A stretch of DNA of 64,000 nucleotides, taken from a bacterium (GTDB lineage Bacteria > JAGOBX01). The translations under genes and the position numbers were made by a program. Below the pieces are notes generated by a model. That model was not told where the DNA came from and did not search any database. It saw only the letters and a list, made by a program, of their open reading frames with translations. Positions within the stretch are counted from its first letter, which is position 1. Every line of letters starts with the position of its first letter. The stretch is taken from NCBI GenBank assembly GCA_029551925.1, contig JAKPEO010000124.1, positions 86,898 through 150,897 of the forward strand, read 5' to 3'. Below are positions 18,701 to 55,799 of this stretch, one piece after another.

Positions 18701-19837
18701 TGTTAATTGAAGATAAGTAGTATTTGTCAAAGTATTATTCGCATTTAAAATAAACGAATTAATAACCGGCGCCGTTTTATCTAATGTTATTGCTATTGGA
18801 TTAGAGGTTGAATTACCGAACCAATCTTTTACTTGTAATAATAAATTTTTAGCGCCATCGCCAATAGATAAATTACATTGCGCGCTGGAAGCACTATATG
18901 TTTTCCACTCATCAGCATCGGTTACATCGCCAGTAATTTTATAATATAATGTATCCATTAAATAATTATTTCCAGAATTAGTAGCATTAAATGTTATTGT
19001 TATAGTTGTATCATTAGCGTATTGCGAATAATTTAAATTGCTTATGATCGGAGTTTCTACTTTAGAAAAATTATATTGCGGATTCGTTGTTACATTTTTA
19101 TTTGCTTCTTCTATGACATAATTCCCTAAACTATAATTCGGCTCGCCAGCGTCATACTGATTATTATCATTCAAATCAATAAAAGTTTTGAGACTATAAT
19201 TTGTGTAAAATAAATTATTAAATGAATAATTGAAATTATTACTAACATTTAATGCATTTAAATTTAAAGTAAACATTTGCGAATCTGTCGTTATTTCAGC
19301 GTTATTAGCCCAAGTAGTCAAATATAAATATATTTTTTTATTATTCAACGATTCTGCGTTAGTAGAATTTGTATTAAATGTAAATTGTCCGCTTATCGAA
19401 CCATCGCCTGGTAAAGGAAAATATACTATATTTGCATATGCACGATTATCATTATTATCACTAACGCTTAAATACAAATTATGTGGCGCACGATTAGTAT
19501 AATTTATGTTGGCATTATAACTCGTTAAATCTTGACTTGCATTTTCTTTATCTATTGATTGATTATAATGAAATGATGGACTGCCGTTGGCATAAATAGA
19601 TATATTAACAAAATCAATTAATGCATTTTGCGAAGGATCGCTTAATGTCCAAACAAATTGTCCAGTAGAATCATTTACAGAATATGCAATCGGCTTTGTA
19701 ATTATCAACGGCGTTGAAATGCCTTTGATAAATTTTGCGGTTGCTCTATAAATTGTATCATCATTATATTTTTTCACATTAAAATTATAACTCGTGCCGC
19801 TTACAGGAAAATCTGAAATAACAATATTAAGTATCAA
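15749..19837 (-). CDS. Large cell-surface protein with tandem Ig-like modules and a T9SS C-terminal sorting domain. It is probably the downstream part of a frameshifted gene that is continuous with 19827..20465.
   Basis: 1362-aa ORF. The C-terminal ~90 aa are a classic T9SS CTD (FPNPF...KIKIYDILGQLVDE...GEKVASGVYLVVIE...KKLAIIR). Internal ~310-aa repeats begin DQTGP(T/S)F(N/T)FTPVTWADTTQAINLQF. There is no ATG start and no signal peptide; the predicted start is TTG, which overlaps the upstream ORF by 11 bp. Confidence 0.75.
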   Translation of the reverse strand: MILNIVISDFPVSGTSYNFNVKKYNDDTIYRATAKFIKGISTPLIITKPIAYSVNDSTGQFVWTLSDPSQNALIDFVNISIYANGSPSFHYNQSIDKENASQDLTSYNANINYTNRAPHNLYLSVSDNNDNRAYANIVYFPLPGDGSISGQFTFNTNSTNAESLNNKKIYLYLTTWANNAEITTDSQMFTLNLNALNVSNNFNYSFNNLFYTNYSLKTFIDLNDNNQYDAGEPNYSLGNYVIEEANKNVTTNPQYNFSKVETPIISNLNYSQYANDTTITITFNATNSGNNYLMDTLYYKITGDVTDADEWKTYSASSAQCNLSIGDGAKNLLLQVKDWFGNSTSNPIAITLDKTAPVINSFILNANNTLTNTTYLQLTFNVSDVNLQDTIIITGDLTNAAQITNSSPQQIILTTGDGVKTITARFQDLAGNISETSATITLDQTGPTFNFTPVTWADTTQAINLQFTVSDQRYIKGVALHYIEMDSTADFNNVQIITLTPSGQSIEYSDTFTIPARNATIADSGFVYYYLAVSDTLDNVKYYIISGETTVSPSQISQFVKLQRIDYSAPEISIVQAPLTNSNNCTVVINKLSITGIGLATGRIYGDIENQVNITDTNIMTYAVSLTNTNGIKTIYCEYVDIEGNTSPAGSATIFFDNTAPNISLQIGSADITNFTQQVVTFSYSDSTDRKDTIEILASSDVLTAYKGEIAITSGNQFNIELTAGDGIKTISIKVYDSAGNYTTVNDTIILDQTGPSFTFTPVTWADTTQAINLQFSVTDVYSNIGEVNLYYVDIDSAAILDNLIEISKTANNSKTLTDTFTIPARSANSLDSGLVYYGLEAIDVLGNTTYYLLAGETVTQVNNINQFIVLKRQDITPLSVNPLSYTVDTTINSRTVIFTGSFGNIGALNTLQVYNSESGNTTTVFSNTDTTVFSQQITFTSDGIKTIIFTASSVNNEPPKNSAKITFNIDVTAPNLQIISPASGIVIDTDNISVIGKLNHTPANDTAKIVLNNQDTFYVTLGLPADTFTCAVSNLQANTNTLKIIATDFVGNETYINLLVYYNNDTSIKIINTTIDSAAPIVIIEDTTAVIVNAVLANNNQAPNTAVLNIATANNATIELNLTFSDTSLPINVSIKTAEDTTVKQKIEASEQVKQTVKKFGTDADYSAGLQTVRKFDFIQNNQSINNNVSCTITFNLPLQLQNKYVSVYWFNETQNEWQALADTQIISRQSDKIIARLTHFSIYGVFSAGAPVQTTMDNIVIFPNPFKPNDGNPATGAEFSGALNAGNMTGIHIIGLPANAKIKIYDILGQLVDECEPLTNQGMVIWDAYNKKGEKVASGVYLVVIESPLGKKVKKLAIIR
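17197..18604 (-). repeat. Intragenic tandem duplication: ~0.47-kb repeat segments spaced ~0.93 kb apart (approximately 18127-18604 and 17197-17671).
   Basis: DNA strings such as AATCGCTTG(C/T)GTAGTATCAGCCCAAGTAACTGGCGTAAA recur about 930 bp apart. The encoded modules are LDQTGPTFNFTPVTWADTTQAINLQFTVSD... and LDQTGPSFTFTPVTWADTTQAINLQFSVTD... Confidence 0.7.
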
Positions 19838-34181: not shown

Positions 34182-34694
34182 TCAAAACACAAATTCGTAA
34201 TCAATTTCGATGATAAATTTTTTTGAAAGTCTGTGATATGTTATTATTGTTTCAAACGGCTCGCGGACTTTAGAAATTATTTTTATTCTATGTTCTTGCG
34301 CTATTAAATTATTCAGAGTGTGTTTAAAACAAGCATATTCCCAACCGCCTGCCATTATGATTTTTTTCATTGTTTTTAATTGTAAAAATAAAAGTTTTTT
34401 TAATGCCAATACTTGTTGAGATACATTTTGCTGATGAAAATTAGGAATTAGATAAATCATATTTTCATAACCATAAAAAAAATCCGGCAATTCCATACCT
34501 TCATTTAAATTCAACACTATTATTTTAACGCCCTGATTGTATAAATCAGAAATCTTTTGTAATAATTTTTTTTTGAAGTTGTCGATATCACTGATTTTTT
34601 TGCTTAATGAAAAAGCGAAATCGTCAGGATGAACAATTACATAACAAGTTCTTTTTAAAGGGACTGCATCTGCTTTGATATTAATGCCTACCAT
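34182..34694 (-). CDS. Hypothetical protein, possibly an isochorismatase-family cysteine hydrolase.
   Basis: 170-aa ORF. YVIVHPDDFAF resembles the isochorismatase N-terminal VIDMQNDF motif. IIMAGGWEYACFKHT resembles the catalytic-Cys loop. The match is weak. Confidence 0.3.
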   Translation of the reverse strand: MVGINIKADAVPLKRTCYVIVHPDDFAFSLSKKISDIDNFKKKLLQKISDLYNQGVKIIVLNLNEGMELPDFFYGYENMIYLIPNFHQQNVSQQVLALKKLLFLQLKTMKKIIMAGGWEYACFKHTLNNLIAQEHRIKIISKVREPFETIITYHRLSKKFIIEIDYEFVF

Positions 34695-35377
34695 GGTTTA
34701 TCTTGATATCCCTTTAAAATTACTTTTTCGGATTTTTGCGGTTCATTCATTTTATTAGAATTTATTATTGAATTTAACAGTTGTTCAGCCTGCTCTTTAT
34801 CAAAATTATTTTTTTGCTGTTTTTGATCTTGTTTGTTTTTTTCATTATCATTTTTATTTTTTTGCTGGTTGTCTTTTTTTTTGTCGTTTTCATTAGATTT
34901 ATCATTTTTATCTTTTTGGTTCTGCTGCTGTTGTTGTTGCTGCTGCAGCATATTTAAAGCATAGGTAAGATTGTATTTTGCATTTAGATGATTAGGATTA
35001 ATTTTCAAAGCATTTTTGTAATGTTCTATTGCATCTGAATATTTCTGCTGCTCTACTAAAATATTACCCATATTATAATGCGCTTCGGATTTTAGAGTTT
35101 TATCAGTTCTTTCGTTATTTATAGTTTTTTCTAAATATCGCAGCGCTTCATCGTAATTTTGCTGTTTTGCCAAAGCAGTAGATTTATTGAATTTATTAAG
35201 CGGGCTTTGCGGATTAAGCAATTCCGCATTTTCAAATTGTTTGGCGGCACTGTTAAAATCTTTTTTTTTATAATATTCAATACCTTTTTTATTGAAATTA
35301 TATTCTTTGTCAATCACAGAAAATTGCAAAAAAAAAGGCGCTAAAAAAATAATCAGAAATAATTTACCAAAATTCAT
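34688..35377 (-). CDS. TPR-repeat protein with a Q/N/K-rich low-complexity tail (BatC-like).
   Basis: 229-aa ORF with a signal peptide and three TPR units (AAKQFENAELLNP...; ALRYLEKTINN...; AIEHYKNALKINPNH). A polyQ run follows. It overlaps the vWA gene by 4 bp. Confidence 0.6.
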   Translation of the reverse strand: MNFGKLFLIIFLAPFFLQFSVIDKEYNFNKKGIEYYKKKDFNSAAKQFENAELLNPQSPLNKFNKSTALAKQQNYDEALRYLEKTINNERTDKTLKSEAHYNMGNILVEQQKYSDAIEHYKNALKINPNHLNAKYNLTYALNMLQQQQQQQQNQKDKNDKSNENDKKKDNQQKNKNDNEKNKQDQKQQKNNFDKEQAEQLLNSIINSNKMNEPQKSEKVILKGYQDKPW

Positions 35378-36420
35378 TGTTCTAATTTTTTCAATAAAAA
35401 TTTAGTTTTAAAAAATTTTAATGCGTTTTTTTGCGATGAAATTAAAGTTTCGATTACTAATAATATAAAAGCAATCAGCGCAAAAATAGCATAGCGCTCT
35501 TCATAAACAGCAATTTGAAAATTTTCAATTTCTTTTTTTTCTAATCTCATAATTTCATTGAATATCAACGTTAATTCTTTTTCATTACTGCCGGGATTCA
35601 ATCTAAAATAAGCGCCGCCTGTCTTTAATGCCAATGTCTGCAATAGTTCTTCATTTAACCGCGAGGTTACAATATTGCCACTCTGGTCTTTGATAAATTC
35701 ACCAGTCGATAGAGTAATAGGCGCTCCTTCAATTGACCCTATGCCTATTGCATAAATTTTAATATTTTTATCAATTAGTTCGTCAATATATTTTATTGTT
35801 TCAGGATTGTGGTCTTCACCGTCTGTAATTAAAATAATAGTTTTATTTGTAGCACTTTGATTGTTAAATAATGTTAAGGCTTTTTCAATAGCGGTGCCAA
35901 TATTTGTGCCCTGCGTAGATATTGCAGACGGAGACAATGAATCAAGCAGCATAAACACCGCAGAATAATCAAATGTCAGCGGACATTGAATATATGCTTC
36001 GCCTGCAAATGGCACAATTGCTATTCTATCGCTTTTAATAAATTTTTCAATACTTCGTTTTATTTCAATTTTTGAGCGCATTAATCTATTCGGTTTTATA
36101 TCGGTAGTTAACATACTATTAGATATATCTATCAAAAAGACAATATCTATTCCGCGTTGTTTAACTTTTTGAAAATTCAAACCGAATTGCGGACGCAACA
36201 CAGCCAATATCAAAAACAAAAAAACTAATAATATCAAAATATGTTTAATTATAATTTTCGCAAATGAAATTTGATTTATAACTCTAAAATTTAGTTGGCT
36301 GCTATTATTAAAAAATCTTTTTACGGCTTTTTGAAATTTTAAATAATAAAATACGCTAATAAAAAAAATTAAAGGCGTTAATAAAATAAACCAGATAAAA
36401 TTTCCGTATTCAAACCGCAT
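35374..36420 (-). CDS. von Willebrand factor A domain membrane protein (BatA-like).
   Basis: 348-aa ORF. Two N-terminal TM helices are followed by vWA with a MIDAS-like motif DIVFLIDISNSM...IVPFAGEAY...ITDGEDH. Confidence 0.75.
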   Translation of the reverse strand: MRFEYGNFIWFILLTPLIFFISVFYYLKFQKAVKRFFNNSSQLNFRVINQISFAKIIIKHILILLVFLFLILAVLRPQFGLNFQKVKQRGIDIVFLIDISNSMLTTDIKPNRLMRSKIEIKRSIEKFIKSDRIAIVPFAGEAYIQCPLTFDYSAVFMLLDSLSPSAISTQGTNIGTAIEKALTLFNNQSATNKTIILITDGEDHNPETIKYIDELIDKNIKIYAIGIGSIEGAPITLSTGEFIKDQSGNIVTSRLNEELLQTLALKTGGAYFRLNPGSNEKELTLIFNEIMRLEKKEIENFQIAVYEERYAIFALIAFILLVIETLISSQKNALKFFKTKFLLKKLEQ

Positions 36421-41770: not shown

Positions 41771-41980
41771 TCACTTTGGAAGTAAAATCTTATAAAATAT
41801 AATCACAATCAACCAAACGAAAAACAATATTTTCAAAATATCAAATAAAAACCAAATTATACTAAATATTGAACTCGGTTTATAATAACTTTTTGAAAAT
41901 ATAAACCATCTTAATCTTTTTAATTTGGCATTTATCTTTTTACGATAATATTTATACCCTTTTTGATTTGGCATTACCAT
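41771..41980 (-). CDS. Possible small membrane protein, about 69 aa if it starts at the internal Met.
   Basis: MVMPNQKGYKYYRKKINAKLKRLRWFIFSK...IIWFLFDILKILFFVWLIVIIFYKILLPK begins right after the stop of the FN3 lipoprotein gene. The predicted ORF extends further upstream and overlaps that gene. Confidence 0.25.
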   Translation of the reverse strand: MVMPNQKGYKYYRKKINAKLKRLRWFIFSKSYYKPSSIFSIIWFLFDILKILFFVWLIVIIFYKILLPK

Positions 41981-41984
41981 ATTT

Positions 41985-42692
41985 TTAATGATTACAGCAG
42001 TTTGCGGCTTCCCCGAGAGTAGTAACAGTTTTTTCGTCAGACGGCTGACTTTCATTACGCAATTTATCATAAGCAGTAACTCGTATTTTATAAAGCGTCC
42101 CTGTTTTTAACCGTGAAATCGTATATTCGGTTTTTGTTATTATTTCATCTGCGCGATTAACGCGCTGCCAGCCGCCATCTTTTGTTGAAATATAAATATT
42201 ATAGCCGTATAAATCTTCTTCGCGATTTTCGTTCCAGCGTATTTCAATACGATTTTCTGCTACTGACACAATATCCAACCCGTCTGGCTGATTAGGCGCA
42301 TCATAATCTTCTATTTTTGCCCTGCCTATTTCAATATTATTTTCAGTTAATCCTCTTATGATTATCGATTTTTTTGGCTGAATATTTATCCGTTCTTTAA
42401 AATATCCGTTTTGATTTGCTTTAAAAGTATCTTCATTAATTTTTATAATAATATTTGGTTTTGTTTTTCCAATTATATTTACATAGTCAAAATCATCGCG
42501 ATAATAATTAGTAATTTCTAAATCGCCGCTAGCTTCGACATTTATTGGCGCTTTATATACATAATTAAAATCAAAAATTTTTTTTTGAGGTAATTCTGAA
42601 TTATTAATAGAAACGCAAGAAAACAAACACAATACACTTATCATTAAAAATAAAAAAAGTAATTTTTTTTTTTCCATTTTAGTTGCTTCCAA
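41985..42692 (-). CDS. Lipoprotein with a fibronectin type III domain.
   Basis: 235-aa ORF. A signal peptide with a lipobox-like LFSCVS. The FN3-like C-terminal domain is LDIVSVAENRIEIRWNENREEDLYGYNIYIS...LYKIRVTAYD. It lies 6 bp downstream of the prohibitin-like gene. Confidence 0.55.
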   Translation of the reverse strand: MEATKMEKKKLLFLFLMISVLCLFSCVSINNSELPQKKIFDFNYVYKAPINVEASGDLEITNYYRDDFDYVNIIGKTKPNIIIKINEDTFKANQNGYFKERINIQPKKSIIIRGLTENNIEIGRAKIEDYDAPNQPDGLDIVSVAENRIEIRWNENREEDLYGYNIYISTKDGGWQRVNRADEIITKTEYTISRLKTGTLYKIRVTAYDKLRNESQPSDEKTVTTLGEAANCCNH

Positions 42693-42698
42693 AAAAAA

Positions 42699-43499
42699 TT
42701 ATTGACGCGGTAATTGTATAAATGGCATAGCATTGCCTGTCACTGTCGGCAATATCCCGTTCCATTTTTCTACAGCTTTCATCTGCACTTCTATTTCGCG
42801 CAATCTTAAAAGTTCGTTTGTAACCTGCTGCCTTTGTATTCTTAACGCTTCTGCTTCCGCTTGCGCTTGTGCTACTTTTTGCTCCGCTTCAATTTTGATG
42901 CGCTCTAAATCACGCTGCGCTTTTAATGCCTGCTGCTCCGCCGCTAACTTTTCTTCTACTGCCGCATTGAATTTCTGACTGAAATCAAAATTTACTACAC
43001 TGAATGCATCTATAATTATTCCGTAAATTTTTAATCTGCTCGTCAATAATTCTGAAATTTCATCGCTTACTTGCCGTCTTTTTGTGATAAGTTCTTCCGC
43101 TGTATATTTTGCGGTTATAGCTTTAACGCATTCTTGCACTGCCGGCGATATTAAAGTTTCAGAATAATTCACGCCTACTTTTTTATATATATCGCTCACA
43201 ACATTTTCAGTAACATGATAATTTACCGCTATCACGCTTTCTACTGTTTGCAAATCTTTACTCGCTGCGCTGGCGCGCGTCTCTAATTTTTTTATTCGTA
43301 TATCAAAATGTATTACATTCTGTATCATCGGCACTATAAAAGTTATGCCTTCGCCAGCTACTCTCTTAATCGAGCCTAATTGCAGCACTATTCCGCGATA
43401 GCCAGGCTGTATTATAGCAAACGGTTTAAATAAAATAAATAAAATTCCTAAAAAAATCAAAACTACTAAATACCTTAAAAATTGGTTTCCGGTATTCAT
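42699..43499 (-). CDS. Prohibitin-like SPFH/band-7 membrane protein.
   Basis: 266-aa ORF. An N-terminal TM segment, the SPFH core (IIQPGYRGIVLQLGSIKRV...FDIRIKKLETRASAASKDLQTV...), and a C-terminal coiled coil rich in AEQ/AQA. It lies 20 bp downstream of the giant TPR gene. Confidence 0.75.
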   Translation of the reverse strand: MNTGNQFLRYLVVLIFLGILFILFKPFAIIQPGYRGIVLQLGSIKRVAGEGITFIVPMIQNVIHFDIRIKKLETRASAASKDLQTVESVIAVNYHVTENVVSDIYKKVGVNYSETLISPAVQECVKAITAKYTAEELITKRRQVSDEISELLTSRLKIYGIIIDAFSVVNFDFSQKFNAAVEEKLAAEQQALKAQRDLERIKIEAEQKVAQAQAEAEALRIQRQQVTNELLRLREIEVQMKAVEKWNGILPTVTGNAMPFIQLPRQ

Positions 43500-43519
43500 A
43501 AAATTTCACTCCTTTATAT

Positions 43520-46500
43520 TTAATTTAAATTTTTCTTTAATTCATTTAAACGCTGCGCAGCTTTGCTCGCATAATCTGATGTCGGGTCTAATTTGATTGA
43601 TAATAAATAAAGTTCGTATGCTTTTTGATGATTATTAGAATCATAATACAAATCCGCTAACTTATTAATTATTTTTAAATCATTATTTTTTAATGTATAA
43701 ATTCGTTCGTAAATTTTTACAGTCTCTTTGATATTACCGCCGGTTTCATAAATTTCCGCTAATAATATCATATAATCAATATTAGTTGGCTCTAAATTTA
43801 CAGCTTTTTGAACATTCAATAACGCTCTGTCATATTTTTTTAATTTATATGATAATAAGCCATATTGCTGATAATATGTTGAATTTTTAATATTAAATTT
43901 TTCAGATTTCTCAAATAATTTGTCAGCTTCATCAAATTTTCCAACTTTCATTGCCGCAAGCGCTGAATTATAATATATCCGAAAATCTTCGAGATTTTGA
44001 TACTTTTGATTGTATGCTGAAAGTATCTCATAACTTTTTCTAAATAAGCCCTTTGTATAATAAATATTCGCTAATTTCAATATTCTATCATTTAATTTTT
44101 TTTGAATGTCAGATTTAGAAGTATCTAATGTTTTTAAATCTTGAAGTTTAGTATAATATCTCGCAGCATTATCAAATCTATTGATTTCATAATTTAAATC
44201 ACCGGCTGTCATCAAAATTTCCCATTGATTATTATTGATATTTAATGAATTTTCAAATTTTTGCAGAGCATCGGTCTTTTTGCCATTATTTAAATCAATA
44301 TATCCCAATAAATTCAAAATTTCAGTATCGTTTTTATTTGTAGCGTAAATTCTATTTAAAAATTCAGCGGCTTTATTATAATCATTTTTATAATAAAGTA
44401 TTTTGCCTGCTATTTTATTGAAATTTTCAATATCCGGCGCGGCAGTCAAGCCCGCGTCAAAATATTTTTTTAAATCAGCATAAGCATTATCAAAATTATT
44501 AAGGTAATAATAAGAGACAACCGTGTATTTATAATTATTCGCTGGCAATTTCGTTTTTACGCTCATAGAATTAAATAATTGCAGCGCTTCAGAATATTTT
44601 TTTAAGTGAAACGCTGAAATCGCAAAATTAAAATAATTTTCATTGTCTAATGAACTCTGCTTCTTGATTTGAGAATAATATAAATATGATTTTGCATAAT
44701 CAGTTATTGAAAAATAAAATTTCGCGATTTGCTGAACAATTTTATCAAAATAATTAGCATCTTCGATTTTATATGTCCCGTCATTATGAATCTTAATCAT
44801 TTCTTCATAATAGCCAATTAATCGCGCATCTATTTTGGAATTTAATTCATTATATAAATCAGCGGCTAATCGTAAAACTTGAAATTTTAAATTCGCTGAT
44901 ATGCCTTTTTGCAATAAATCATCGAATATTTTCAGCGCTTCGATTTTTTTCCGAATTTTGTAGAGCGAATATCCGTATTCATACATCTGCTCAGCGCGCA
45001 AATTGTTCAATTTTCCTGAATATTCCGCGCATTTTTCAAAATTTCCTAATTCAAAATTAGATTTCGCTAATTTTGATAATATCGTCTCTTTGTTTTGGTC
45101 AAGATTAAATAATACAGATAAATATCTATCTGCTAATTCATAATTTTTTAAATCAAAATAAGCATCGCCTAAATATTTGAGACATTCGGAATTTTTAGGA
45201 TTGTAATTCAAAGCAAATTTATAGTATTCTATGGCTTTTATGTTGTTGTTGCTCTTTCGATATAACCGCGCTAATATTAAAGCGTTTTCTTCTGACGGCG
45301 CTTTTGAATACAAATATAAATAATTTCTTTCTGCTGACGCAGTATCATTTTTGCTAATCGCAATGTCTCCTAAAATTTGATACACGCGCGGATCGTCAGA
45401 AATACCAGCAGCTTCATTAAGAAAATTTTGCGATTTTTCAAAATTCTTAATTTCGTAATATTTCAGCCCCAGCAATGTATAAGGCACAATTACATTAGCG
45501 CCGCTTTTCTTGGCTAAACTAAAATATTCTTCCGCTTTATTAAGATTGTTGTTATTTAAAAAATATTCGCCGATTATTAAATAAGCATCGCGTTTCGATT
45601 TTTCTTCTACTAACTCGATTTTATCTATTATCTGCTGAATATATTGCTCGATATTTTTGCTGTCGCCTAACTCTAAAAGTATCTTCACAAATTTTAATCT
45701 TATATCAATAATATTTTTTTCTGATAATCTGTTATTCAGTGCTTTTTCATTAGTATGATATTTAAAAAACTTTTCGTAATACTCGCCAGCTTTTTTTAAA
45801 TCGTTTTTGCTAAAATAAATTTCTGCTAAATAATACGCATAATCTGCAAAATTTTTAATATCCGCTGTTTTTCTTTCAAATTCTAAAAAATATTCAGCAG
45901 CATTAGTCAATTCTTTTGACAGCCAATATGTATAACCTACTATAAAATTTAATTCTGTTAATTGCTTTTTATAAATTTCTGGTAAAGTATCCACTAATCT
46001 TTTTATTTCAACATAATTCTGATTTTCAAAATAATATTTTAGCGCATATTCCAAATCTTCTAATTTTATCTTATTATCGGATTTATATTTTTTTAAAATA
46101 TATTCTACCGCAGCGGATTTATTATCCAATTTTATTAAACATTCAATTATATTATCAAAATATTCTTTGTTTTTAGTCAAATCAAGCCGAGAATAATAAT
46201 TATACGCTTTTTCGTAATTTTTACTTGCGAATAGTAAATTAGCGGTTTTTAAATATATTTCAGCGTCATTATTATTTATCGCTTGCAAATACTTTTCAAA
46301 ATAATGCGCGGCTAATAACGGATCTTTATTTTCTAATAAAAGTCCTAATCTTTTATTTACATCATTTCGAGTATTATCCAATAGCGAACATAAATAATAA
46401 TAAACAACAGCGCTGTCTATTTTTTTCAAATTATCAAATGATTTAGCCAATAAATAATAAATTTCAAAATTTGTTTTATTAAACTGCAAATATTTTTTCG

Positions 46501-49500
46501 CTGATAATATCGCACTGTCAAATAAATCTACATCAAAATAATATTCAGCTGATTTTAATGACAATTGCTGAATGTATTCAAGCGCATATTCTTCGTTTTT
46601 CATTATTTCAAACGCTTCTTTGAAATAATAGCCCGCTTGCTTTTTGTCAATAGTTGCTAACGCCAATCTAAAATACGCTAATCCCAATGTTTTTTTATCG
46701 TCAGCTGGCAAAATCTCAAAATTAAGCATTTTATAAGTGTCTATTGTTTTTTTATAATCTTCAATTTTAAATAATAATCGCGCAAGAGTCAGAATCGCTT
46801 GATTATCGCTTTTATTTGACATTATATATTTCTCATAATTCGCCGCGGCATTTTTGAAATCATTAAGCCGAAGATACAAATCTCCGAGCCGCTGATATGC
46901 TTTTATTTTGTTTTTGTCTAATGATATTAGTTGATTATATAATTTTATCGCGTCATTAACATACGATAATTGAAAATATAAATCTGCGCATTTTTCTAAA
47001 ACTTCAATATTTTTTGGGTTTGTTGACAAATAAATTGAATATTGATTTGCAGCGTTTACTAAATCGTTATTTTTTAAAAATAATTCCGCTAATTTATAAT
47101 TCAAATCATTGTTTTTAACTAAATTTCGCGCTAATACATACAATTCAATACTTTTATTAGTATCTAAATATTTTTCGCTTAACTGCGCAATCTGCAATAT
47201 AAAATTATTGTCGTTTGATTTCAGCGCAGCATTCGCTAAATATTCCGCGGCTTCTTTCTCTTGACCTGTATAATAATAAGCCCAGCCTAACTGCCGACTG
47301 TATTCAAAAGAATCCATTATTTCTTCGCGCTTTAATTTTGTGTAAATATCAATTACATTTTTATAATCTTTCAAAGAATAATAAGCGCTCGCTATTTTCA
47401 AAATTATATTTGTGTCGTTTTCCGAATATTGCAATGCTCCGCGATAGTTTTCTATCGCCTTAATATTTTCATTTGCAATGCTGTATAAATCTCCTAACTT
47501 TTCATAAATATTTCTTTTTAATTTTCGTATTTCTTCGGTGTTGCGCGCTTCTGATTCTATTCGTGTAAGCGCTTGCCATGCGTCTTGAAATTTACCGGAT
47601 TCGTATGACGCCACAGCTAAATAATAATACGCATCTTTTGATAAATACGGCTTTATACGAGATTCTGCTAATATTTTATAACCTTCAAAATAATTGGATT
47701 TCTTCACTTCCGCTATGCCTGTCAATACTCTTATTCGCATTTCAATATCGCGGTCATATACTTCAAACTTCAAATTTTTAGACGAATTTATTACTTCGTC
47801 GAATCTGCCGAGTTCTAATGCAGCTTCTAAAAATTTATATGTGTAATATTTTTTAGAATTATCTATGCTCAATAGTTTTTTCAATATTTCATATTCGTTT
47901 TGTTTGTTGCCGATTATTCTGCTGATTTCATATTTTATTAATAAATTTTCAAAATTGTCCGCGATATTAACTGATAATTTCGCGGCATCGGCAATCAGCC
48001 CATTTTTAAAATATAAATTGAATACCGCATTTATATAATTGCTATCTACTACTAACCCTTGCTTTTCAAAATTTTTTAATGCTTCGGCATATTCGCCTTT
48101 ATTATACAAACTCTGAAATTCGATTTTCTTTAATTCGGCGTCTTTTGCTTCTAATAAATTCAAATATTTTAGCGCTGTGTCGTATTTGCCGTCGCTATAC
48201 GCTTTTTTAGCAAGTATCGTATATGTGTGATTTATAATATTTACAATCTCCGGCTCGCTGCCGCTCGCTTTGATATTCATCTCCGCTAATTTTTCATATT
48301 CTCCTAATCTATACAGACACTTCGCTTTTAATAAAATAAATTTGTCTTTTTGGTCATTTTTGAGTTTTTGAGAATCTAATAATTTTAAACTTTTCGCATA
48401 ATTTCCTGTGTTAAAATACGCTGATACTAATCTTTCATAATCTGCGATTTCAAAATTATTATTTATAAATCTGTCCGCGTATTCTATATAAATATTGTCA
48501 TTTGAATTATTTAACGCTTTCAATATTTTTAGCGCGGCTTCTTCAATAACCGCGCGAGATATTTTCTTTGTCGTTTCAGTTTTTAATAATTCATTAGTCA
48601 ATTTTCCGATTAAATTAATTTTTTCAGTTTCGTCTATCGATAAATTATTCAAGCATTCTACATACATTAATAATACATCTTCGTCAAATATTGTTTTTTT
48701 CAAGGTCTCATAACATTTCTGATAATAACTTGTTTTTAAATATGCTGTCGCAATAATTTTTAATAAATTATTCGCTAAATTTTTATTTGTTAATTTTTCA
48801 AATACTTCTATTATTCGCTGATACTCGTTTCTTTCCGAAAGCAATATAATCAACTTATCAGCATAATCTAAATTATTCGTAAATTTATAATGCCAAAATA
48901 AAAAATTATACGATTTCTCACGAGTTGCTGTATTATAATAATAATTTCCTAATATCTGACTTACATTTGTTAAGATATTTTTATAATTTTCAATTTTTGC
49001 GATTTCTGTTTTGTCAGTAGAATAAACATTAAATACTCTTTCATAATAGTCGATTTTTTGAATAATATTATTTTGCAAATCTGCCGCGTTATAAAAAGCG
49101 ATAAATATTTTTTTATTTAATTCTTTTAATAAATTCAATTTTCCTAATTTTTCTAATTTATTGAATTGCTCGATAAAATTAATATAATCGGAATTATCAA
49201 AATAAATTTCGCCGAGCTGCGCTATAACTTCAATATCATTAGAATTTTTCTTTAAATGTCTTTGAAAATTTATCAGCGCCTGATTTATATTTTTAGATTT
49301 TATAAATAATCTGCCAATTTTTTTATATTTATCATTTAAAACATCATCAGGCAATTGTTCGAGCCGCGCTATCGCATTTTCATAGTTCCCTAAATTTTCT
49401 TCTAACTCGGCAATCTTCAATATCGCAGTTTGATTTTTATTGATATTTGCGTATTTCTTCAAAAAATCAAGAGCTTTTGATAGATTGCCGTTTTGCAAGT

Positions 49501-52500
49501 AAATCTCATACAAAGCATATAAAGCGTTTTCATTTTCTTCTATTTCTAATAACCTCAAATATAATTTTTCGAGATTTTGAGTATCTCGCGTCTGCTGCGC
49601 TAATTTTATCGAGCGTTTTAAAATATCAGCGTTTTTCGTTATTTCGCATAATTTCAAATAATAAGAATACGCTTTTTTATAATCTTCGATATTATACAAA
49701 GATTCCGCAAATTTCGTAATTTCGCTTTCGCTATTAAATTCTTGTTCGTCAGCTTTAGAATAATATTCTACCGCGTTTGAATAGCGTTTGAGATAATAAT
49801 AGCAATCGCCGATTTTTTTATTTAATGATGATTTTTGTTCTAATGTCGATAATCTCAAATAATTTTCTAACGCCTGATTATAACGCTGCGCTTTAAAAGA
49901 TTCGTCCCCAATCGTTGAATAAATGTCTATTAACGCATTTTTTACGCGGCTGTCGTTTGCGTCTAATTTCGCCAGCATTTCAAGCGACGCTGTATAATCC
50001 TTTAAATAATAAGCGGCAAACGCTCTGTAAAATTTTACATCGTATTTTATCGTATCTTTGATTAATTTCAAATGTCTTAACGCGTCATCGAATCTCTTCA
50101 ATTCAAAATAAGATACCGCCAATATATAATTTATCTTGTCTAATTCATCTGACCGTTTAAATGAATTTTGCTTTACCGCGTTCATCAATATATTAATTGT
50201 TTGACTGAATTTTTTTGCGTTAAAATTGTATTCTGTAAGTTCAATAATATAATTATTTTCTAATGTTTTATTTTGTAAATACGATTTTTCTAATATCTCG
50301 AAATATTTATTTTCTAAACCTAATGCCCGAGCTATTTGCAAATAGCTTTTTAATGTGTCTTTATGCAAAAATTCGTTCTTTGAAAAATAGTCGGATAATA
50401 TTTGGTTGTGATTTTTGATAATATCATCTTTCGCTAAAATATCCAAATATCTTTTTTGATTATCTGCTGATTTTTTGTGGTAATCTAATAATTCTAAAAC
50501 ATATTGTATTTGACTATTGTCTAATTCAAAAATTTTCTCTATTAGCGAATAATATTCCGGTTTGCGCAGTTCTTTGCAAATATCTGCGAATTTCTTTAAT
50601 TTTTCGATATTTCGAGTCTTTAATAAATTCAATTGAATTTTGGAATAGTAGTTATATGCTTCTACTATTTTGCCGTTTTCTAAATACAAATCAGCTAATT
50701 TTTCAATAATTTCCAAATCTTCGGTTTTATTAAGCGTTAAATATCTTTCATAATATTGCAGCGCTAAATTAATCTGCGCTAAATGCAAATTTACTTCCGC
50801 TAACTTTTTGTATATTTCAGCGGTTTCTGCGAACATCTTGGCTTTGTTGAGATATTCAAGCGCTTTACCGTAATTTTTAGTTTTAAAAAAATAATCAGAA
50901 GCGTAAAAAATCAAATCTCGGCCGTTTAATTTTCCGCTTTCTAATTTTTCTAAATAGCCGTTTAATTTCTCAAATTTTTCAGAACGCAGTAATGACAATA
51001 AAAAGAAATCTGATATTTCCTTATAATCCGGATAATACATCATTACTTTTTCATATAATTCATTTGCTTCATCGTATTTCTGTTGATAAAACAAAATCAT
51101 CGCTAATTCATATTTATAACTATAATTTTCAGGATTCAATTCTATTAGTTTTTTGTATATTTCTGCCGCTTGATTATTGTCATATAAATTTAATAATTTT
51201 TTTGCGTATATTTCAGTTAATTGTTTTGCTACTATTTTTTTATCTGATAATCTGCTGAAATAATATTCGGTCTTTTCTAAATTTTTCAACCTTGCAAAGC
51301 AGTCGCCCGCAAAATATAAACTGTCTTGCAAGCGATAATTTTCATTTGCGCATATTTCAAAAAATTTAGCGGATTTTTCATATTCTTCTAATTTATAATA
51401 TATCTCTGCAATTTTATATGCGGTATTAATTATCTGTTTTAGCGGGCTTTCTGAAATTTTACGATTATAAAATTTTAGATAATGCTCTAATGCCTGCGTT
51501 AAATTATTATTCCGTTCGTATATCCGCGCAAGTTGAAAATTAGCGGATATTTCATCAGAAAAATAGTCCTGATATTTTTTCGCAATCTTTATTCTATCAG
51601 TGTCTGACGCTAAATAATCTAATAGCGAAAATAAAATTTTTATAGAGTCTGAATCGCTGTCAGTTAAATTTTCTAATGTTTTAATAATATTGCCGAGGCG
51701 GTAATAAGCGGTCCCTAAAAGTTTTCTGCTGTTTTGATAATCTCTGATTTTATTAAATTCTGCTATTGCATTATTATAATCAGAATTATTAAAATAACAT
51801 AATGCCTTATGATAAATTACATCTGTATCTTCTTGCAATTTTAAAAAATATTCGAGCGCTTCCGCATATTTGCCGTTATCAAATAAAAATCGCGCTTTGA
51901 TTAATGAATATTTATTTGTTAATTCTTGATATTTTTTAGAATTAGTTTTTTGTAAATTCTCGTTAGATAATAATTTCTCAGCCATTTCAAATTTCGATAT
52001 GTCAATACAAGCATCGGCGAAATTTAATAAAAATTCAGTATCTGCTATTTTGTCATTATATATTTTCAAATAATATTTATACGCTATTTGCGGCAGCCCG
52101 CGCTGATAATATAAATCAGCGGCATATTTAAAAAGTTTGTCAGAACTATAACCGCTTTCCAAGCCCTGCGCAAAATATTGCAGCGCCTTTTCCTGCTGAC
52201 CTTTATTCAGGTATATCTCGCCTAAATATAAATAGCCCTGCATATAATCTTTGTCATTAGCCAATACTGCGCTAATATTTTTTTCCGCTTTGTCATACAG
52301 CCCTTGCGCCATATAAATATCAATCAATTTCATTTTTATTGATTTATCTGTTGGAAAGGATTTTTCTAATATTTCAAGATATATTAAAGCGTTTTTGTCA
52401 TCGCTGATTGACAAATAATAATCAGCTAATTTTTTCGCAATATTATTGTCTTTGAATTTCGAATATAATATTTTTTGATAGTTTGCCGCTATATCGGATT

Positions 52501-54649
52501 TTCCTAATTTTTCAGAACATTCTACATAATTAAAAAATATTTGAGTGTCATTATCAATATTAGCGTTTTTTATTAATTCATCGTATTTAGAAAACGCATC
52601 TTTGACATTGCCGTAGAAAAATTCTATATCAGCGGCCAATCGCATTTTCTCGCGTTGATAATTACTTGTTTCGCTAATCTTTTTTAAATATGACAGCGCT
52701 TCAGGATACTCTTTTTTTATATAACTTATTTTCGCTAAATAAAATAACGCGTGCTCGTCGTCCGGCGCAATCTTTATTATCTTGGAAAAATAATTTGCTG
52801 CGCTCTCGATATTTTCCGGATATTCTGATATTGCGTAATTTCTATATATCTCTATTAGATAATTATTGATTTTGTTTATATCGCCGTATCTACCGCGAAT
52901 GTTTTCAAAATATTTTTCGGATTTTTCAAATTTCTTTTGATTGTAATATAATTCCGCTAATAAATATTGCGCTTCAAAATTTTCGCGGCTGTCAGCGCTC
53001 AATTTTTTTAATATTTCGAGCAAATAATCTTCTGTTTTTTGATGATTATTAGCATACGCTAATTTCGCGGCTTCTAATAAATATTTTATATTTTGTTCTT
53101 TATCGATATTTTTTAAATTTAAGATTTTATCATAAACCGCTAACGCTTTGTCTATATCATTTATCTCTTTATAAAATTTTATGACTTGTAATAATTCGGA
53201 CAACTCTACATCTGCAAAAGATAAAATTAGTTTTAAATTTTTTTCTAATTCCGCTGTATCTTGTTGAAGCTTTTGAGAAAAATAAGCGCTTTGCAAATAT
53301 AATTTACGCTGTTCTGAACCGCTTTTTCCTTTTAAATTAGATTCTGCATAAATGTCCAACCAATATTTCGCTTTTTGATAATCGCCTAAACTCGCATAAA
53401 TTTTTGAAATCGTATCAGCGACAGTTTTTGAATCGTCTGAATTTTCAAGATGCTCGATGCTTTTTGCTAATTCGCCGTTAGAAAAATAAAATAATCCGAT
53501 AAATTTGTCTGTCAGCATTTCAGGAGTAATAGTATCCGTATAAACGCTCTGTATTCTTTCAAACAACGCAGTATCGATTTTTAATTTAAAAGCGCGGCTT
53601 TGATTATTTTCTAACTGCGTAGCTTTTATTTTATTGACTATTTCTAATACCTTGCTGTCTGTCGACTCCTGACCAACAGCATAATAAATATTTGCTATTT
53701 CTCGCAATTCGTCATTTTTCAAATTTTTTAGATTTTCAATTAATTTTAATGCTGTTAATAAATGACCATTTTCAGTAAATACTTTAAATAACTTTTTTTG
53801 CAATTCTATATCTGAATTTATCACATGAGAATAATCGTCATAAAACTTCAATAATTCGTCTAATTTTTGAATTTCTATTATTATATCGGCGCTGAATTTT
53901 ACGGCAGTTAAATCGTCTGGTTTGGTCTTTAAAATTTTTTTGAGCGCTTTTAAACTATCAGCGAGATTCTTGGTATAATATGCGCAGCGCGCAAATAATA
54001 AATTTTCTTGATAATCCAAATCTCCTAAATTAAAACCGATATATAGTTTGATATATGCTTTTTCGAGTTCGCCTAATCCTAAATATATTTTTCCTAAATT
54101 AGTTAAGGCAATAGTATCAGTTTTATCTAATTTATTAACATAGCTAAACAATCGTTCAGCGTCAACAAAATTAAATTTATTGAATTCTTTCAATGCGTCT
54201 GCTAATATAGATTGTTTTAATGAACTTTTGATTACAGAATTATCTTCTAAATCTAATGTCTCGCTGTAATTATAATAAAAATCAAGGGCTTTCGGATATT
54301 CTTTTTTCTTGATTTCTATGTCTAATAATTGCTTGACAGTCTTTTTATTCAGCGGATTTAATGACAGCGAATATTTTAATAGTTTTTCCGCATCTTGAAA
54401 TCTATTTAATTTTATAAATATTTCAGCGGTTTGATTTAATATATTTTCATCTGCAATATTATCTATATTTTTTAAAATCAATTCTGCGGTCTTTTCTGTT
54501 TTTTTTAAAGATTGCGTATTCTTGCTGTCTTTTAATTCCTTTGCAATTTTAGTCAAATCCACAGCGTTTTTGCCGTAAGATTGATTTATATTCCACAAAA
54601 AAAATAATAAAAACAATAATAGACATCTATAATAAACAATTCTTGTCAT
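43520..54649 (-). CDS. Giant 3709-aa secreted TPR-repeat protein.
   Basis: A single uninterrupted 11,130-nt ORF. It has an N-terminal signal peptide (MTRIVYYRCLLLFLLFFLWNINQSYG). The rest is essentially continuous degenerate TPR-like 34-mers (AxxYYxxAxxYxxxxxYxKAxEYYxK). No catalytic domain was recognisable. Confidence 0.8.
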   Translation of the reverse strand: MTRIVYYRCLLLFLLFFLWNINQSYGKNAVDLTKIAKELKDSKNTQSLKKTEKTAELILKNIDNIADENILNQTAEIFIKLNRFQDAEKLLKYSLSLNPLNKKTVKQLLDIEIKKKEYPKALDFYYNYSETLDLEDNSVIKSSLKQSILADALKEFNKFNFVDAERLFSYVNKLDKTDTIALTNLGKIYLGLGELEKAYIKLYIGFNLGDLDYQENLLFARCAYYTKNLADSLKALKKILKTKPDDLTAVKFSADIIIEIQKLDELLKFYDDYSHVINSDIELQKKLFKVFTENGHLLTALKLIENLKNLKNDELREIANIYYAVGQESTDSKVLEIVNKIKATQLENNQSRAFKLKIDTALFERIQSVYTDTITPEMLTDKFIGLFYFSNGELAKSIEHLENSDDSKTVADTISKIYASLGDYQKAKYWLDIYAESNLKGKSGSEQRKLYLQSAYFSQKLQQDTAELEKNLKLILSFADVELSELLQVIKFYKEINDIDKALAVYDKILNLKNIDKEQNIKYLLEAAKLAYANNHQKTEDYLLEILKKLSADSRENFEAQYLLAELYYNQKKFEKSEKYFENIRGRYGDINKINNYLIEIYRNYAISEYPENIESAANYFSKIIKIAPDDEHALFYLAKISYIKKEYPEALSYLKKISETSNYQREKMRLAADIEFFYGNVKDAFSKYDELIKNANIDNDTQIFFNYVECSEKLGKSDIAANYQKILYSKFKDNNIAKKLADYYLSISDDKNALIYLEILEKSFPTDKSIKMKLIDIYMAQGLYDKAEKNISAVLANDKDYMQGYLYLGEIYLNKGQQEKALQYFAQGLESGYSSDKLFKYAADLYYQRGLPQIAYKYYLKIYNDKIADTEFLLNFADACIDISKFEMAEKLLSNENLQKTNSKKYQELTNKYSLIKARFLFDNGKYAEALEYFLKLQEDTDVIYHKALCYFNNSDYNNAIAEFNKIRDYQNSRKLLGTAYYRLGNIIKTLENLTDSDSDSIKILFSLLDYLASDTDRIKIAKKYQDYFSDEISANFQLARIYERNNNLTQALEHYLKFYNRKISESPLKQIINTAYKIAEIYYKLEEYEKSAKFFEICANENYRLQDSLYFAGDCFARLKNLEKTEYYFSRLSDKKIVAKQLTEIYAKKLLNLYDNNQAAEIYKKLIELNPENYSYKYELAMILFYQQKYDEANELYEKVMMYYPDYKEISDFFLLSLLRSEKFEKLNGYLEKLESGKLNGRDLIFYASDYFFKTKNYGKALEYLNKAKMFAETAEIYKKLAEVNLHLAQINLALQYYERYLTLNKTEDLEIIEKLADLYLENGKIVEAYNYYSKIQLNLLKTRNIEKLKKFADICKELRKPEYYSLIEKIFELDNSQIQYVLELLDYHKKSADNQKRYLDILAKDDIIKNHNQILSDYFSKNEFLHKDTLKSYLQIARALGLENKYFEILEKSYLQNKTLENNYIIELTEYNFNAKKFSQTINILMNAVKQNSFKRSDELDKINYILAVSYFELKRFDDALRHLKLIKDTIKYDVKFYRAFAAYYLKDYTASLEMLAKLDANDSRVKNALIDIYSTIGDESFKAQRYNQALENYLRLSTLEQKSSLNKKIGDCYYYLKRYSNAVEYYSKADEQEFNSESEITKFAESLYNIEDYKKAYSYYLKLCEITKNADILKRSIKLAQQTRDTQNLEKLYLRLLEIEENENALYALYEIYLQNGNLSKALDFLKKYANINKNQTAILKIAELEENLGNYENAIARLEQLPDDVLNDKYKKIGRLFIKSKNINQALINFQRHLKKNSNDIEVIAQLGEIYFDNSDYINFIEQFNKLEKLGKLNLLKELNKKIFIAFYNAADLQNNIIQKIDYYERVFNVYSTDKTEIAKIENYKNILTNVSQILGNYYYNTATREKSYNFLFWHYKFTNNLDYADKLIILLSERNEYQRIIEVFEKLTNKNLANNLLKIIATAYLKTSYYQKCYETLKKTIFDEDVLLMYVECLNNLSIDETEKINLIGKLTNELLKTETTKKISRAVIEEAALKILKALNNSNDNIYIEYADRFINNNFEIADYERLVSAYFNTGNYAKSLKLLDSQKLKNDQKDKFILLKAKCLYRLGEYEKLAEMNIKASGSEPEIVNIINHTYTILAKKAYSDGKYDTALKYLNLLEAKDAELKKIEFQSLYNKGEYAEALKNFEKQGLVVDSNYINAVFNLYFKNGLIADAAKLSVNIADNFENLLIKYEISRIIGNKQNEYEILKKLLSIDNSKKYYTYKFLEAALELGRFDEVINSSKNLKFEVYDRDIEMRIRVLTGIAEVKKSNYFEGYKILAESRIKPYLSKDAYYYLAVASYESGKFQDAWQALTRIESEARNTEEIRKLKRNIYEKLGDLYSIANENIKAIENYRGALQYSENDTNIILKIASAYYSLKDYKNVIDIYTKLKREEIMDSFEYSRQLGWAYYYTGQEKEAAEYLANAALKSNDNNFILQIAQLSEKYLDTNKSIELYVLARNLVKNNDLNYKLAELFLKNNDLVNAANQYSIYLSTNPKNIEVLEKCADLYFQLSYVNDAIKLYNQLISLDKNKIKAYQRLGDLYLRLNDFKNAAANYEKYIMSNKSDNQAILTLARLLFKIEDYKKTIDTYKMLNFEILPADDKKTLGLAYFRLALATIDKKQAGYYFKEAFEIMKNEEYALEYIQQLSLKSAEYYFDVDLFDSAILSAKKYLQFNKTNFEIYYLLAKSFDNLKKIDSAVVYYYLCSLLDNTRNDVNKRLGLLLENKDPLLAAHYFEKYLQAINNNDAEIYLKTANLLFASKNYEKAYNYYSRLDLTKNKEYFDNIIECLIKLDNKSAAVEYILKKYKSDNKIKLEDLEYALKYYFENQNYVEIKRLVDTLPEIYKKQLTELNFIVGYTYWLSKELTNAAEYFLEFERKTADIKNFADYAYYLAEIYFSKNDLKKAGEYYEKFFKYHTNEKALNNRLSEKNIIDIRLKFVKILLELGDSKNIEQYIQQIIDKIELVEEKSKRDAYLIIGEYFLNNNNLNKAEEYFSLAKKSGANVIVPYTLLGLKYYEIKNFEKSQNFLNEAAGISDDPRVYQILGDIAISKNDTASAERNYLYLYSKAPSEENALILARLYRKSNNNIKAIEYYKFALNYNPKNSECLKYLGDAYFDLKNYELADRYLSVLFNLDQNKETILSKLAKSNFELGNFEKCAEYSGKLNNLRAEQMYEYGYSLYKIRKKIEALKIFDDLLQKGISANLKFQVLRLAADLYNELNSKIDARLIGYYEEMIKIHNDGTYKIEDANYFDKIVQQIAKFYFSITDYAKSYLYYSQIKKQSSLDNENYFNFAISAFHLKKYSEALQLFNSMSVKTKLPANNYKYTVVSYYYLNNFDNAYADLKKYFDAGLTAAPDIENFNKIAGKILYYKNDYNKAAEFLNRIYATNKNDTEILNLLGYIDLNNGKKTDALQKFENSLNINNNQWEILMTAGDLNYEINRFDNAARYYTKLQDLKTLDTSKSDIQKKLNDRILKLANIYYTKGLFRKSYEILSAYNQKYQNLEDFRIYYNSALAAMKVGKFDEADKLFEKSEKFNIKNSTYYQQYGLLSYKLKKYDRALLNVQKAVNLEPTNIDYMILLAEIYETGGNIKETVKIYERIYTLKNNDLKIINKLADLYYDSNNHQKAYELYLLSIKLDPTSDYASKAAQRLNELKKNLN

Positions 54650-54920: not shown

Positions 54921-55799
54921 ATGAAAGAATATCATTTTTTGTTGTATAATTTATTTTATGCTAATAAAAACGATGAACGATTAGTCGTCCCTAAAAAATT
55001 TGGTCTCGGCTGGACTATTAATTTTTGCCATCCTAAAGCCAATCTATGTTTGTTTATAACAATGACATTAATATTAATATTGATATTTCTTATTACTATT
55101 ATTTTGAATTATTCATATTTGCAGCAAAATTCAAATGTATTTATCTGGTATTTTTTATCAATATTTTTTTCGTTGATTGTTTTTTCTTTTGTTTTTTTAA
55201 AATTTAATGCAGATATAAAAGATATTTATATAGTTATGTCATATGGAATATTGGCTTGTTTTATTGGTTTTGGATTTCAACAAATTTTTAATGGCATTCC
55301 GATATTAATAATAAAAATGAAAAATATTAAATGGTATTATCATATTTATTTTGCCGCGATGGCTGCTGTGTGCCAAACATTCGGTAAATTCGCGGTTATA
55401 TTATTATTAATGAAATTATACGACTCTAAAAATACAATTATTAAATTCGGATTGCTAGTGGGGTTGGGATTTACTATAACTGAAATTTCACTAATAACAG
55501 TGACTATAATATTCAATAAACTTCCTTTTTCCTCAATATCATATTTAGGAATTTTTGAACGCACAGCTGCTTCAATATTCCATATATACACTGCTGGATT
55601 AATAGCGTTCGGTTTAATCAAACGAACATATAAATATTTAATTTTAATAATCATTTTGCATTCGCTATTAGATTTTTTAGCAGGGACCTATCGCCATTTC
55701 AATATTCCTGTTAACACTCTTGAAATTATAGTTTTTGCAATATCATTTTTTATTTTAGTAATATTTGCATTTACTTTAAAAAATACTTATAAGATATAA
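54921..55799 (+). CDS. Polytopic membrane protein of unknown function, possibly a YhfC-like intramembrane protease.
   Basis: 292-aa ORF with about 7-8 TM helices and conserved-looking E/H residues within helices (TEISLIT, FHIYTAG). It is transcribed divergently from the giant TPR gene. Confidence 0.3.
   Translation: MKEYHFLLYNLFYANKNDERLVVPKKFGLGWTINFCHPKANLCLFITMTLILILIFLITIILNYSYLQQNSNVFIWYFLSIFFSLIVFSFVFLKFNADIKDIYIVMSYGILACFIGFGFQQIFNGIPILIIKMKNIKWYYHIYFAAMAAVCQTFGKFAVILLLMKLYDSKNTIIKFGLLVGLGFTITEISLITVTIIFNKLPFSSISYLGIFERTAASIFHIYTAGLIAFGLIKRTYKYLILIIILHSLLDFLAGTYRHFNIPVNTLEIIVFAISFFILVIFAFTLKNTYKI

Follow-up and report, generated by a model that had tools for sequence, protein, structure and literature searches.

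What is a bacterium doing with an 11.1-kb gene whose product appears to consist of nothing but tetratricopeptide repeats (TPRs), and do the two genes that follow it belong to the same system? The gene lies on contig JAKPEO010000124.1 (assembly GCA_029551925.1), in a stretch of 64,000 nt (positions 86,898 to 150,897 of the forward strand) which was analysed as a whole and which we refer to as the window. Directly downstream are genes for a prohibitin-like SPFH membrane protein and a fibronectin type III (FN3) lipoprotein, and an original prediction made from the letters alone had joined the three into a possible envelope-spanning scaffold, ruler or adhesion system. The reading we favour, with a probability of about 0.55, is that the giant is a Sec-exported, non-enzymatic alpha-solenoid whose association with the SPFH and FN3 genes is specific to its lineage. 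Its most likely role would be that of a very long scaffold with multivalent protein binding, placed in the envelope of this uncultured anaerobic-digester bacterium.

An intact reading frame and a predicted export signal

The open-reading frame (ORF) of the giant (Table 1) runs for 11,130 nt without an internal stop, as originally described. In the base composition of its strand ~9.3% of random codons would be stops, and the probability of a stop-free 11.1 kb arising by chance is ~1e-157. A GGAGAG motif lies 11 nt upstream of the ATG, and the NCBI gene calls in other assemblies (P0153, P0162) use this same ATG, at 54649, whilst JGI begins the gene 17 codons further in (skipping 54599-54649), which yields a 3692-aa product that would lose the signal peptide. 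Read from the sequence, the N-terminus has the charged, hydrophobic and small-residue regions (MTRIVYYR, CLLLFLLFFLW and NINQSYG/K) of a Sec/signal peptidase I (SPase I) signal, in agreement with the Sec signal peptide first proposed, with all of its n, h and c regions present. No lipobox cysteine ends this signal, and the protein carries no membrane anchor. The gene had also been described as having an extremely low GC content, yet at 28.0% it is only slightly below the window mean of 30.7%. The sole Rfam match was a tRNA-Leu, so no leader RNA is found upstream of the operon.

A repeat protein recovered from a metagenome assembly, with a start codon that differs between the JGI and NCBI calls, could be a chimera, a collapsed repeat or a decaying pseudogene. 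The window is, however, identical to JGI contig Ga0116245_10000448 (81.5 kb), and the product encoded on a 150.9-kb NCBI contig is the same over all 3709 aa. Four other samples supplied contigs that align colinearly with the gene with 0 gaps (98.96–99.94% identity), and 13 protein fragments from other metagenome-assembled genomes and metagenomes tile residues 1-3709 without gaps at 98.8–100% identity. The gene has no long DNA repeats and no notable tandem repeats, the longest direct repeat being 61 nt at just 70% identity. Compared with the strain represented by contigs from three other samples (L002-L004), synonymous polymorphism (pS) is ~0.05 and nonsynonymous polymorphism (pN) ~0.004, a pN/pS of 0.08; the gene is under strong purifying selection. 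With the ORF of an orthologue in another lineage also intact over at least 4548 aa, an artefact or pseudogene has practically no chance of being the explanation, and the worry over a chimera is refuted as far as sequence data allow, as the other assemblies agree over the full length.

The differences between strains are concentrated in a patch of ~1 kb, which holds 47 of the 51 and diverges by 4.8%, against ~0.05% elsewhere; in the remaining ~4 kb the three contigs show 2–4 differing sites. These changes are mostly synonymous, and the patch looks like a tract of homologous recombination.

Repeat architecture and predicted fold

Pfam assigned 19 families to the giant, all of the TPR clan or related helical-repeat families (among them TPR_19 at 9.1e-70, TPR_16 at 1.4e-59 and TPR_2 at 2e-54), and found no enzymatic domain. 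NCBIfam matched TPR proteins alone, the best being PrsT with 264.9 bits, and in the PDB the matches were to consensus or engineered TPRs and to IFT88, and nothing else. As all three return TPR-type matches only, the earlier view of a TPR-only protein lacking an enzymatic domain is borne out.

A repeat hidden Markov model trained on the giant itself detected 75 motifs, spaced mostly by 34 aa or multiples thereof, and left no stretch longer than 146 aa without a motif. AlphaFold2 (AF2), run in single-sequence mode on residues 1-1200, gave a low-confidence model (pLDDT, the predicted local distance difference test, of 48.6), which was used for secondary structure only; it is all-alpha, with ~70 helices of 10–15 aa and no beta domain. 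Given the 34-aa spacing of the motifs and one helix pair per ~34 aa in this model, a reasonable extrapolation puts the whole protein at ~105–110 TPR-like units (~107 helix pairs). The claim of over 100 units therefore holds as an extrapolation and not as a count, which stands at the 75 motifs detected.

There is no detectable internal or recent duplication in the giant. BLASTP of the protein against itself gave no off-diagonal match at E<=1e-3, and the repeats are therefore ancient and each distinct.

One distant orthologue and a constrained repeat order

To place the giant among other proteins, its C-terminal 1200 residues were searched exhaustively with HMMER against 1.84 billion representative proteins. 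This returned the cluster of the giant itself and a single clear orthologue (P0002; E 2e-171, 37% identity), the remaining matches being generic TPR similarity at ~25% identity, each broken up into many short stretches. A metagenome scan placed the gene of the orthologue on JGI contig Ga0116156_10000405 (locus L087, 1-13648), where it encodes at least 4548 aa. The retrieved locus cuts this ORF at its 5' end, and the full protein probably exceeds 5500 aa.

Residues 1722-3708 of the giant are colinear with residues 2507-4525 of the orthologue at 34% identity, and residues 983-1405 align with residues 4-427; overall the alignment covers ~2000 residues at 34–36% identity, with a peak of 54–63% at residues ~2449-2550 of the giant. 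Across the C-terminal ~2000 residues there are 50 gap positions only, whilst between the colinear blocks the orthologue has ~1760 extra residues which are absent from the giant and which show no recent internal duplication themselves. Judged by these alignments, the family is a small one of two known lineages, has stayed intact for a long time, and has a register-constrained C-terminal half and a middle that varies in length.

Since each repeat is distinct and the positions are conserved against an orthologue of 34% identity, the linear order of the repeats would appear to matter. This suggests that different stretches present different binding surfaces, and argues against a generic, expandable array. 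The combination of no recent duplication with strict positional conservation at this distance is mildly unexpected for a repeat protein, and suggests that such giants are ordered scaffolds and not generic "sticky" arrays. It also disposes of the proposal that the gene is a candidate for rapid evolution, given the low pN/pS, the lack of internal BLASTP similarity and the nearly gap-free colinearity with the orthologue.

The SPFH and FN3 genes and the conservation of the arrangement

The prohibitin-like SPFH gene expected after the giant is present at the expected distance. Its product combines an N-terminal transmembrane (TM) segment with a Band_7 domain, which scores 116.1 bits (cut-off 23.6), and a C-terminal coiled-coil-like stretch rich in A, E and Q. 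The closest PDB relatives are prohibitin-2 (4.5e-31) and prohibitin-1 (2.4e-26), far above HflK at just 2.9e-05, so the label "prohibitin-like" is correct. In this layout and in these best matches the protein resembles the subunits of the prohibitin and HflK/C cages. In prohibitin and HflK/C the SPFH domain lies on the exoplasmic side. The charge distribution flanking the TM segment of the window protein is ambiguous, and a periplasmic orientation and assembly into a ring would be expected by homology; by this analogy, all three products could share the periplasm. The known partners of prohibitin and HflK/C are, however, AAA+ proteases (FtsH, m-AAA), and we know of no described association between a prohibitin and a TPR giant. 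The window holds a second SPFH gene (7375-8118, minus strand), which is of the stomatin type (PDB stomatin 3.5e-73) and adjoins a thioredoxin/TPR_20 gene; among the neighbours examined, none was recognised as an NfeD partner.

The FN3 lipoprotein predicted to follow the SPFH gene is also recovered, with its lipobox, but not at the distance given. Both JGI and NCBI start the gene at the ATG at 42674, and not at 42692, and the gap is therefore 21 nt, not 6. The protein has an N-terminal beta-sandwich, the FN3 domain and a C-terminal N-C-C motif; an AF2 model built with its one homologue as alignment (pLDDT 68) shows two beta-sandwich domains, and Foldseek matched this model to tandem FN3/Ig structures. 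That homologue, the only one detectable, is P0152 (L088 3115-3789; 41% identity, lipobox YG/C). Both proteins end in the N-C-C motif (…ANCCNH and …QNCCE), and the second, N-terminal beta-sandwich is common to both. The gene for P0152 lies 8 nt downstream of one whose 923-aa product combines TPRs with a class III cyclase domain. A constant pairing of the FN3 lipoprotein with a TPR protein was considered and rejected, as this is one case and its TPR protein is cytoplasmic and unrelated.

How far the three genes belong together can be approached first through their spacing. The gaps of 20 and 21 nt contain no terminator-like hairpin and are too short for a terminator, each gene has its own ribosome-binding site, and co-transcription fits this spacing; in this species the giant, SPFH and FN3 genes are probably co-transcribed. 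Scans for promoters and terminators are uninformative in DNA so rich in AT, where 136 promoter-like sites were counted and shuffled sequence gave 100 ± 12. Every strain-level contig, from at least five samples, preserves the arrangement.

These observations, together with an exoplasmic SPFH domain by homology and the position of the sole FN3-lipoprotein homologue, again directly downstream of a TPR protein, are what would be expected if the three proteins formed one dedicated envelope system, in which a TPR ruler or scaffold in the periplasm would be anchored or organised by an SPFH cage in the inner membrane and a lipoprotein in the outer one. Conservation among strains is, however, uninformative on function, and more distant comparisons point the other way. 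Downstream of the orthologue are convergent, unrelated genes of the xanthine-dehydrogenase type (molybdo-enzymes), a histidine kinase, a GspG-like pseudopilin and a PRA isomerase; tblastn found no FN3-lipoprotein homologue in this locus, Band_7 was absent from the five downstream ORFs scanned, and neither an SPFH nor an FN3 gene lies in the 10 kb after the orthologue. The SPFH family is widespread, with homologues of 50–61% identity across many phyla (Clostridia, Nitrospirota, Desulfobacterota, Spirochaetota and others). Among its 80 best GTDB loci (the window's own species was not among the matches) none has a giant ORF or an FN3-lipoprotein homologue beside the SPFH gene, and a single locus has a TPR-motif ORF within 4 kb, weak and on the opposite strand. 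The TPR protein beside P0152 lacks a signal peptide and shows no BLAST similarity to the giant, and the 3.9-kb contig that carries the pair holds no SPFH gene. Finally, none of four other giant TPR genes has an SPFH or FN3 gene nearby.

We therefore consider a dedicated three-part system unlikely, although it survives best among the alternatives, and, within the reach of the data, the expectation that related genomes would keep the same neighbours fails at each of these points. The arrangement is probably specific to this species or lineage; a local operon, perhaps with some link in function, describes it better than a defining three-component machine.

Table 1 Features of the window described in the text, with coordinates counted from its first nucleotide
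Feature	Coordinates	Strand	Details
Gene for the giant all-TPR protein, predicted to be exported	43520..54649	-	ORF of 3709 codons/aa, ATG start
Sec-type signal peptide of the giant, codons 1-26, MTRIVYYRCLLLFLLFFLWNINQSYG	54572..54649	-	Predicted cleavage before K27, read from the sequence
Divergent patch inside the giant gene, residues ~2589-2917	45899..46883	-	Single-nucleotide polymorphisms against L002-L004, three other samples
Spacer between TPR and SPFH genes, 20 nt	43500..43519	-	AAGGAG 8 nt before the SPFH ATG
Prohibitin-subfamily SPFH (Band_7) membrane protein, 266 aa	42699..43499	-	Band_7 2.4e-33
FN3 lipoprotein, 230 aa, lipobox LFS/C	41985..42674	-	fn3 2.4e-10; JGI and NCBI start at the ATG
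99-codon ORF, proposed small TM protein, probably not a gene	41771..42070	-	No Pfam match, no JGI call

Proposed function of the giant and alternatives

Our favoured reading, that of a long multivalent scaffold in the envelope, draws together the predicted signal peptide, the exclusively helical-repeat architecture and the constrained order of the repeats. Different TPR stretches would present different binding surfaces in a fixed order along the protein. The host appears to be diderm, because the window has a lipoprotein gene and a GspK-like pseudopilin gene. In the geometry of consensus TPRs, ~8 repeats form a superhelical turn of 7.2 nm, and by this analogy ~107 repeats, if straight and continuous, would span ~95 nm. 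As this exceeds the width of the periplasm, the giant would extend along the envelope, double back or be released. If the reading is correct in this plain form, the locus adds one more very long, uncharacterised TPR protein to those known, as a clean and well-validated example.

Several points weigh against it. The export of the giant is taken from its N-terminal sequence alone, the AF2 model has low confidence and covers a third of the protein, and "scaffold" is a generic role suggested by analogy from the fold, with partners that are only putative. For the lineage-specific operon, one orthologous lineage was available for comparison, so that non-conservation amounts to a single comparison together with indirect tests, and the SPFH and FN3 genes could sit in the unread 12.7 kb upstream of the orthologue. 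Further, with gaps of 20–21 nt and possibly a shared compartment, the three products may yet be functionally linked in this lineage, adjacency being the sole support for such a link.

The same signal peptide, with neither a lipobox nor a membrane anchor behind it, would also suit a protein that ends up on the cell surface or in the medium, through a type II secretion system for instance, as an adhesin or matrix component. A straight solenoid of ~95 nm, by the TPR geometry given above, is longer than the periplasm is wide. The GspK-like gene is 8 kb away in the window, the GspG-like pseudopilin gene is 7 kb from the orthologue, and genes for methyl-accepting chemotaxis proteins (MCPs) and cyclic di-GMP (c-di-GMP) flank the operon. 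The pseudopilin genes are, however, too distant to count as linkage, and the giant lacks adhesin-type beta domains, a C-terminal sorting signal and a beta-barrel. Its pN/pS and register conservation are unlike those of diversifying surface adhesins, and TPR proteins are classically interaction modules of the periplasm or cytoplasm. Release as an adhesin is thus quite unlikely in our view.

A bolder version of the envelope scaffold can be imagined, in which ~107 non-interchangeable TPRs with fixed partners would make an "addressable" scaffold of ~100 nm, organised in this lineage by a periplasm-facing prohibitin cage and the lipoprotein. We regard this as speculative and improbable. If true, it would be a ruler or organiser of the bacterial envelope without a characterised counterpart, and the C-terminal ~2000 residues would be a docking module under constraint, attached to a spacer whose length can change (the ~1760 residues by which the orthologue differs). 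With an uncultured organism, just two lineages that carry the family and a proposed prohibitin link that is not conserved, the locus offers no direct test of an open question.

Comparison with other giants and with known TPR scaffolds

In size and architecture the window protein is not unique. One-third of the top representative matches (50 of 150) are at least 2000 aa long, the longest being 4423 aa, and a crude hydrophobicity test found a signal-like N-terminus in ~22 of the 47 Met-starting giants of at least 2000 aa. Exported TPR proteins of 2000–4400 aa are thus a surprisingly common class in metagenomes, for which we found no study in the literature; neither giant all-TPR proteins nor SPFH-TPR pairings or operons were the subject of any functional study that we found, and the giant-gene literature found concerns multi-domain proteins of Omnitrophota. 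We compared the window protein with P0003 (4423 aa), P0004 (2596 aa, Chitinivibrionales), P0005 (3158 aa) and P0014 (3580 aa). Like it, the other metagenomic giants have TPR-clan domains only and are annotated merely as "tetratricopeptide repeat protein", but they are not orthologous to it, sharing ~25% identity in short, shuffled stretches, and P0003 and P0004 contain long blocks that are visibly repeated, whereas the window protein has no internal similarity.

Four other giants are encoded in settings unlike this one: one follows flgF-G-A-H-I, another a GT2 glycosyltransferase gene, a third is divergent from ftsH and the last lies near lptE. The first of these is P0003 (L098 426-18272), an unrelated exported all-TPR protein encoded directly after flgF-flgG-flgA-flgH-flgI, and this context suggests that some giant TPR proteins, at least, may serve the flagellum as periplasmic accessories. 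The gene for P0014 (L100 2485-15743) is the one divergent from ftsH; FtsH-family proteases are partners of prohibitin/HflKC-type SPFH proteins, though the proximity may be coincidence.

Several shorter TPR proteins are known as scaffolds of large envelope machines, namely PflA/PflB, FlcA, BcsC, AlgK and PrsT, and the giant could likewise belong, as a periplasmic structural component, to a large machine whose other genes lie elsewhere, for instance a flagellar disk or collar or an apparatus for exopolysaccharide export. PrsT (TIGR02917), its best NCBIfam match, is also a long TPR-only envelope protein, and the flagellar setting of the unrelated 4423-aa giant and the MCP genes of a chemotactic organism lend the idea some further weight. 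However, the PrsT score is summed over 7 stretches of repeats and stays below the cut-off of 312.2, and PrsT has a lipoprotein signal, whilst the window giant has an SPase I signal, no lipobox and four times the length. No exosortase XrtA, PEP-CTERM or exopolysaccharide genes were found in the locus of the orthologue or among the scanned ORFs of the window (those of at least 100 aa, nearly all the non-overlapping ones).

BcsC, PgaA and AlgK/PelB are exported TPR superhelices that serve as periplasmic scaffolds of exopolysaccharide export. The giant is likewise a TPR protein with a predicted export signal, but its match to BcsC is very weak (24 bits), and those proteins have ~10–20 TPRs that work with an outer-membrane beta-barrel, either fused to them or as a separate partner, and are encoded in synthase operons. 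The giant has no C-terminal outer-membrane beta-barrel, helical-repeat families covering the whole protein, and no synthase genes lie in the window. PflA/PflB of Campylobacter and FlcA of Borrelia are exported TPR proteins that build large periplasmic flagellar structures. They are ~10 times shorter than the giant, the likeness is an analogy and not a demonstrated homology, and flagellar genes are absent near the giant in the window and in the orthologue's locus. With neither exosortase, polysaccharide synthase nor flagellar genes in the 64 kb or in that locus, a part in such a machine is very unlikely. As an envelope scaffold, the giant may instead work like the periplasmic TPR scaffolds (PrsT, the BcsC/AlgK type, PflA/B or FlcA) whilst being a member of none of these families.

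Other features of the window

A small TM protein had been proposed to follow the FN3 lipoprotein, but the ORF in question is probably not a gene. It overlaps the 3' end of the FN3 gene out of frame over 86 nt, AT-rich intergenic DNA supplies its hydrophobic tail, it has no Pfam match, and it is absent from the JGI calls for the source contig. The next gene after FN3 is that for a dCache/HAMP chemoreceptor, after a gap of 288 nt.

The window encodes a lipoprotein, the GspK-like pseudopilin, chemoreceptors and c-di-GMP enzymes, and otherwise ordinary chromosomal metabolism genes; among the scanned ORFs there were no mobile-element, exosortase, polysaccharide-synthase or flagellar genes. A Bat-like cluster (34182-36420, minus strand) lies 5.5 kb downstream of the giant TPR operon and comprises a VWA protein (BatB/BatA-like, 2.5e-42), a 229-aa TPR protein and a 170-aa ORF without a family. 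Further along, a 1362-aa ORF (15749-19837, minus strand) has as its sole Pfam match a weak C-terminal FlgD_ig, below the cut-off, and carries no other annotation. On the other side, the gene divergent from the giant (54921-55799, plus strand) encodes 292 aa with DUF5808 and a YhfC-like intramembrane metalloprotease region.

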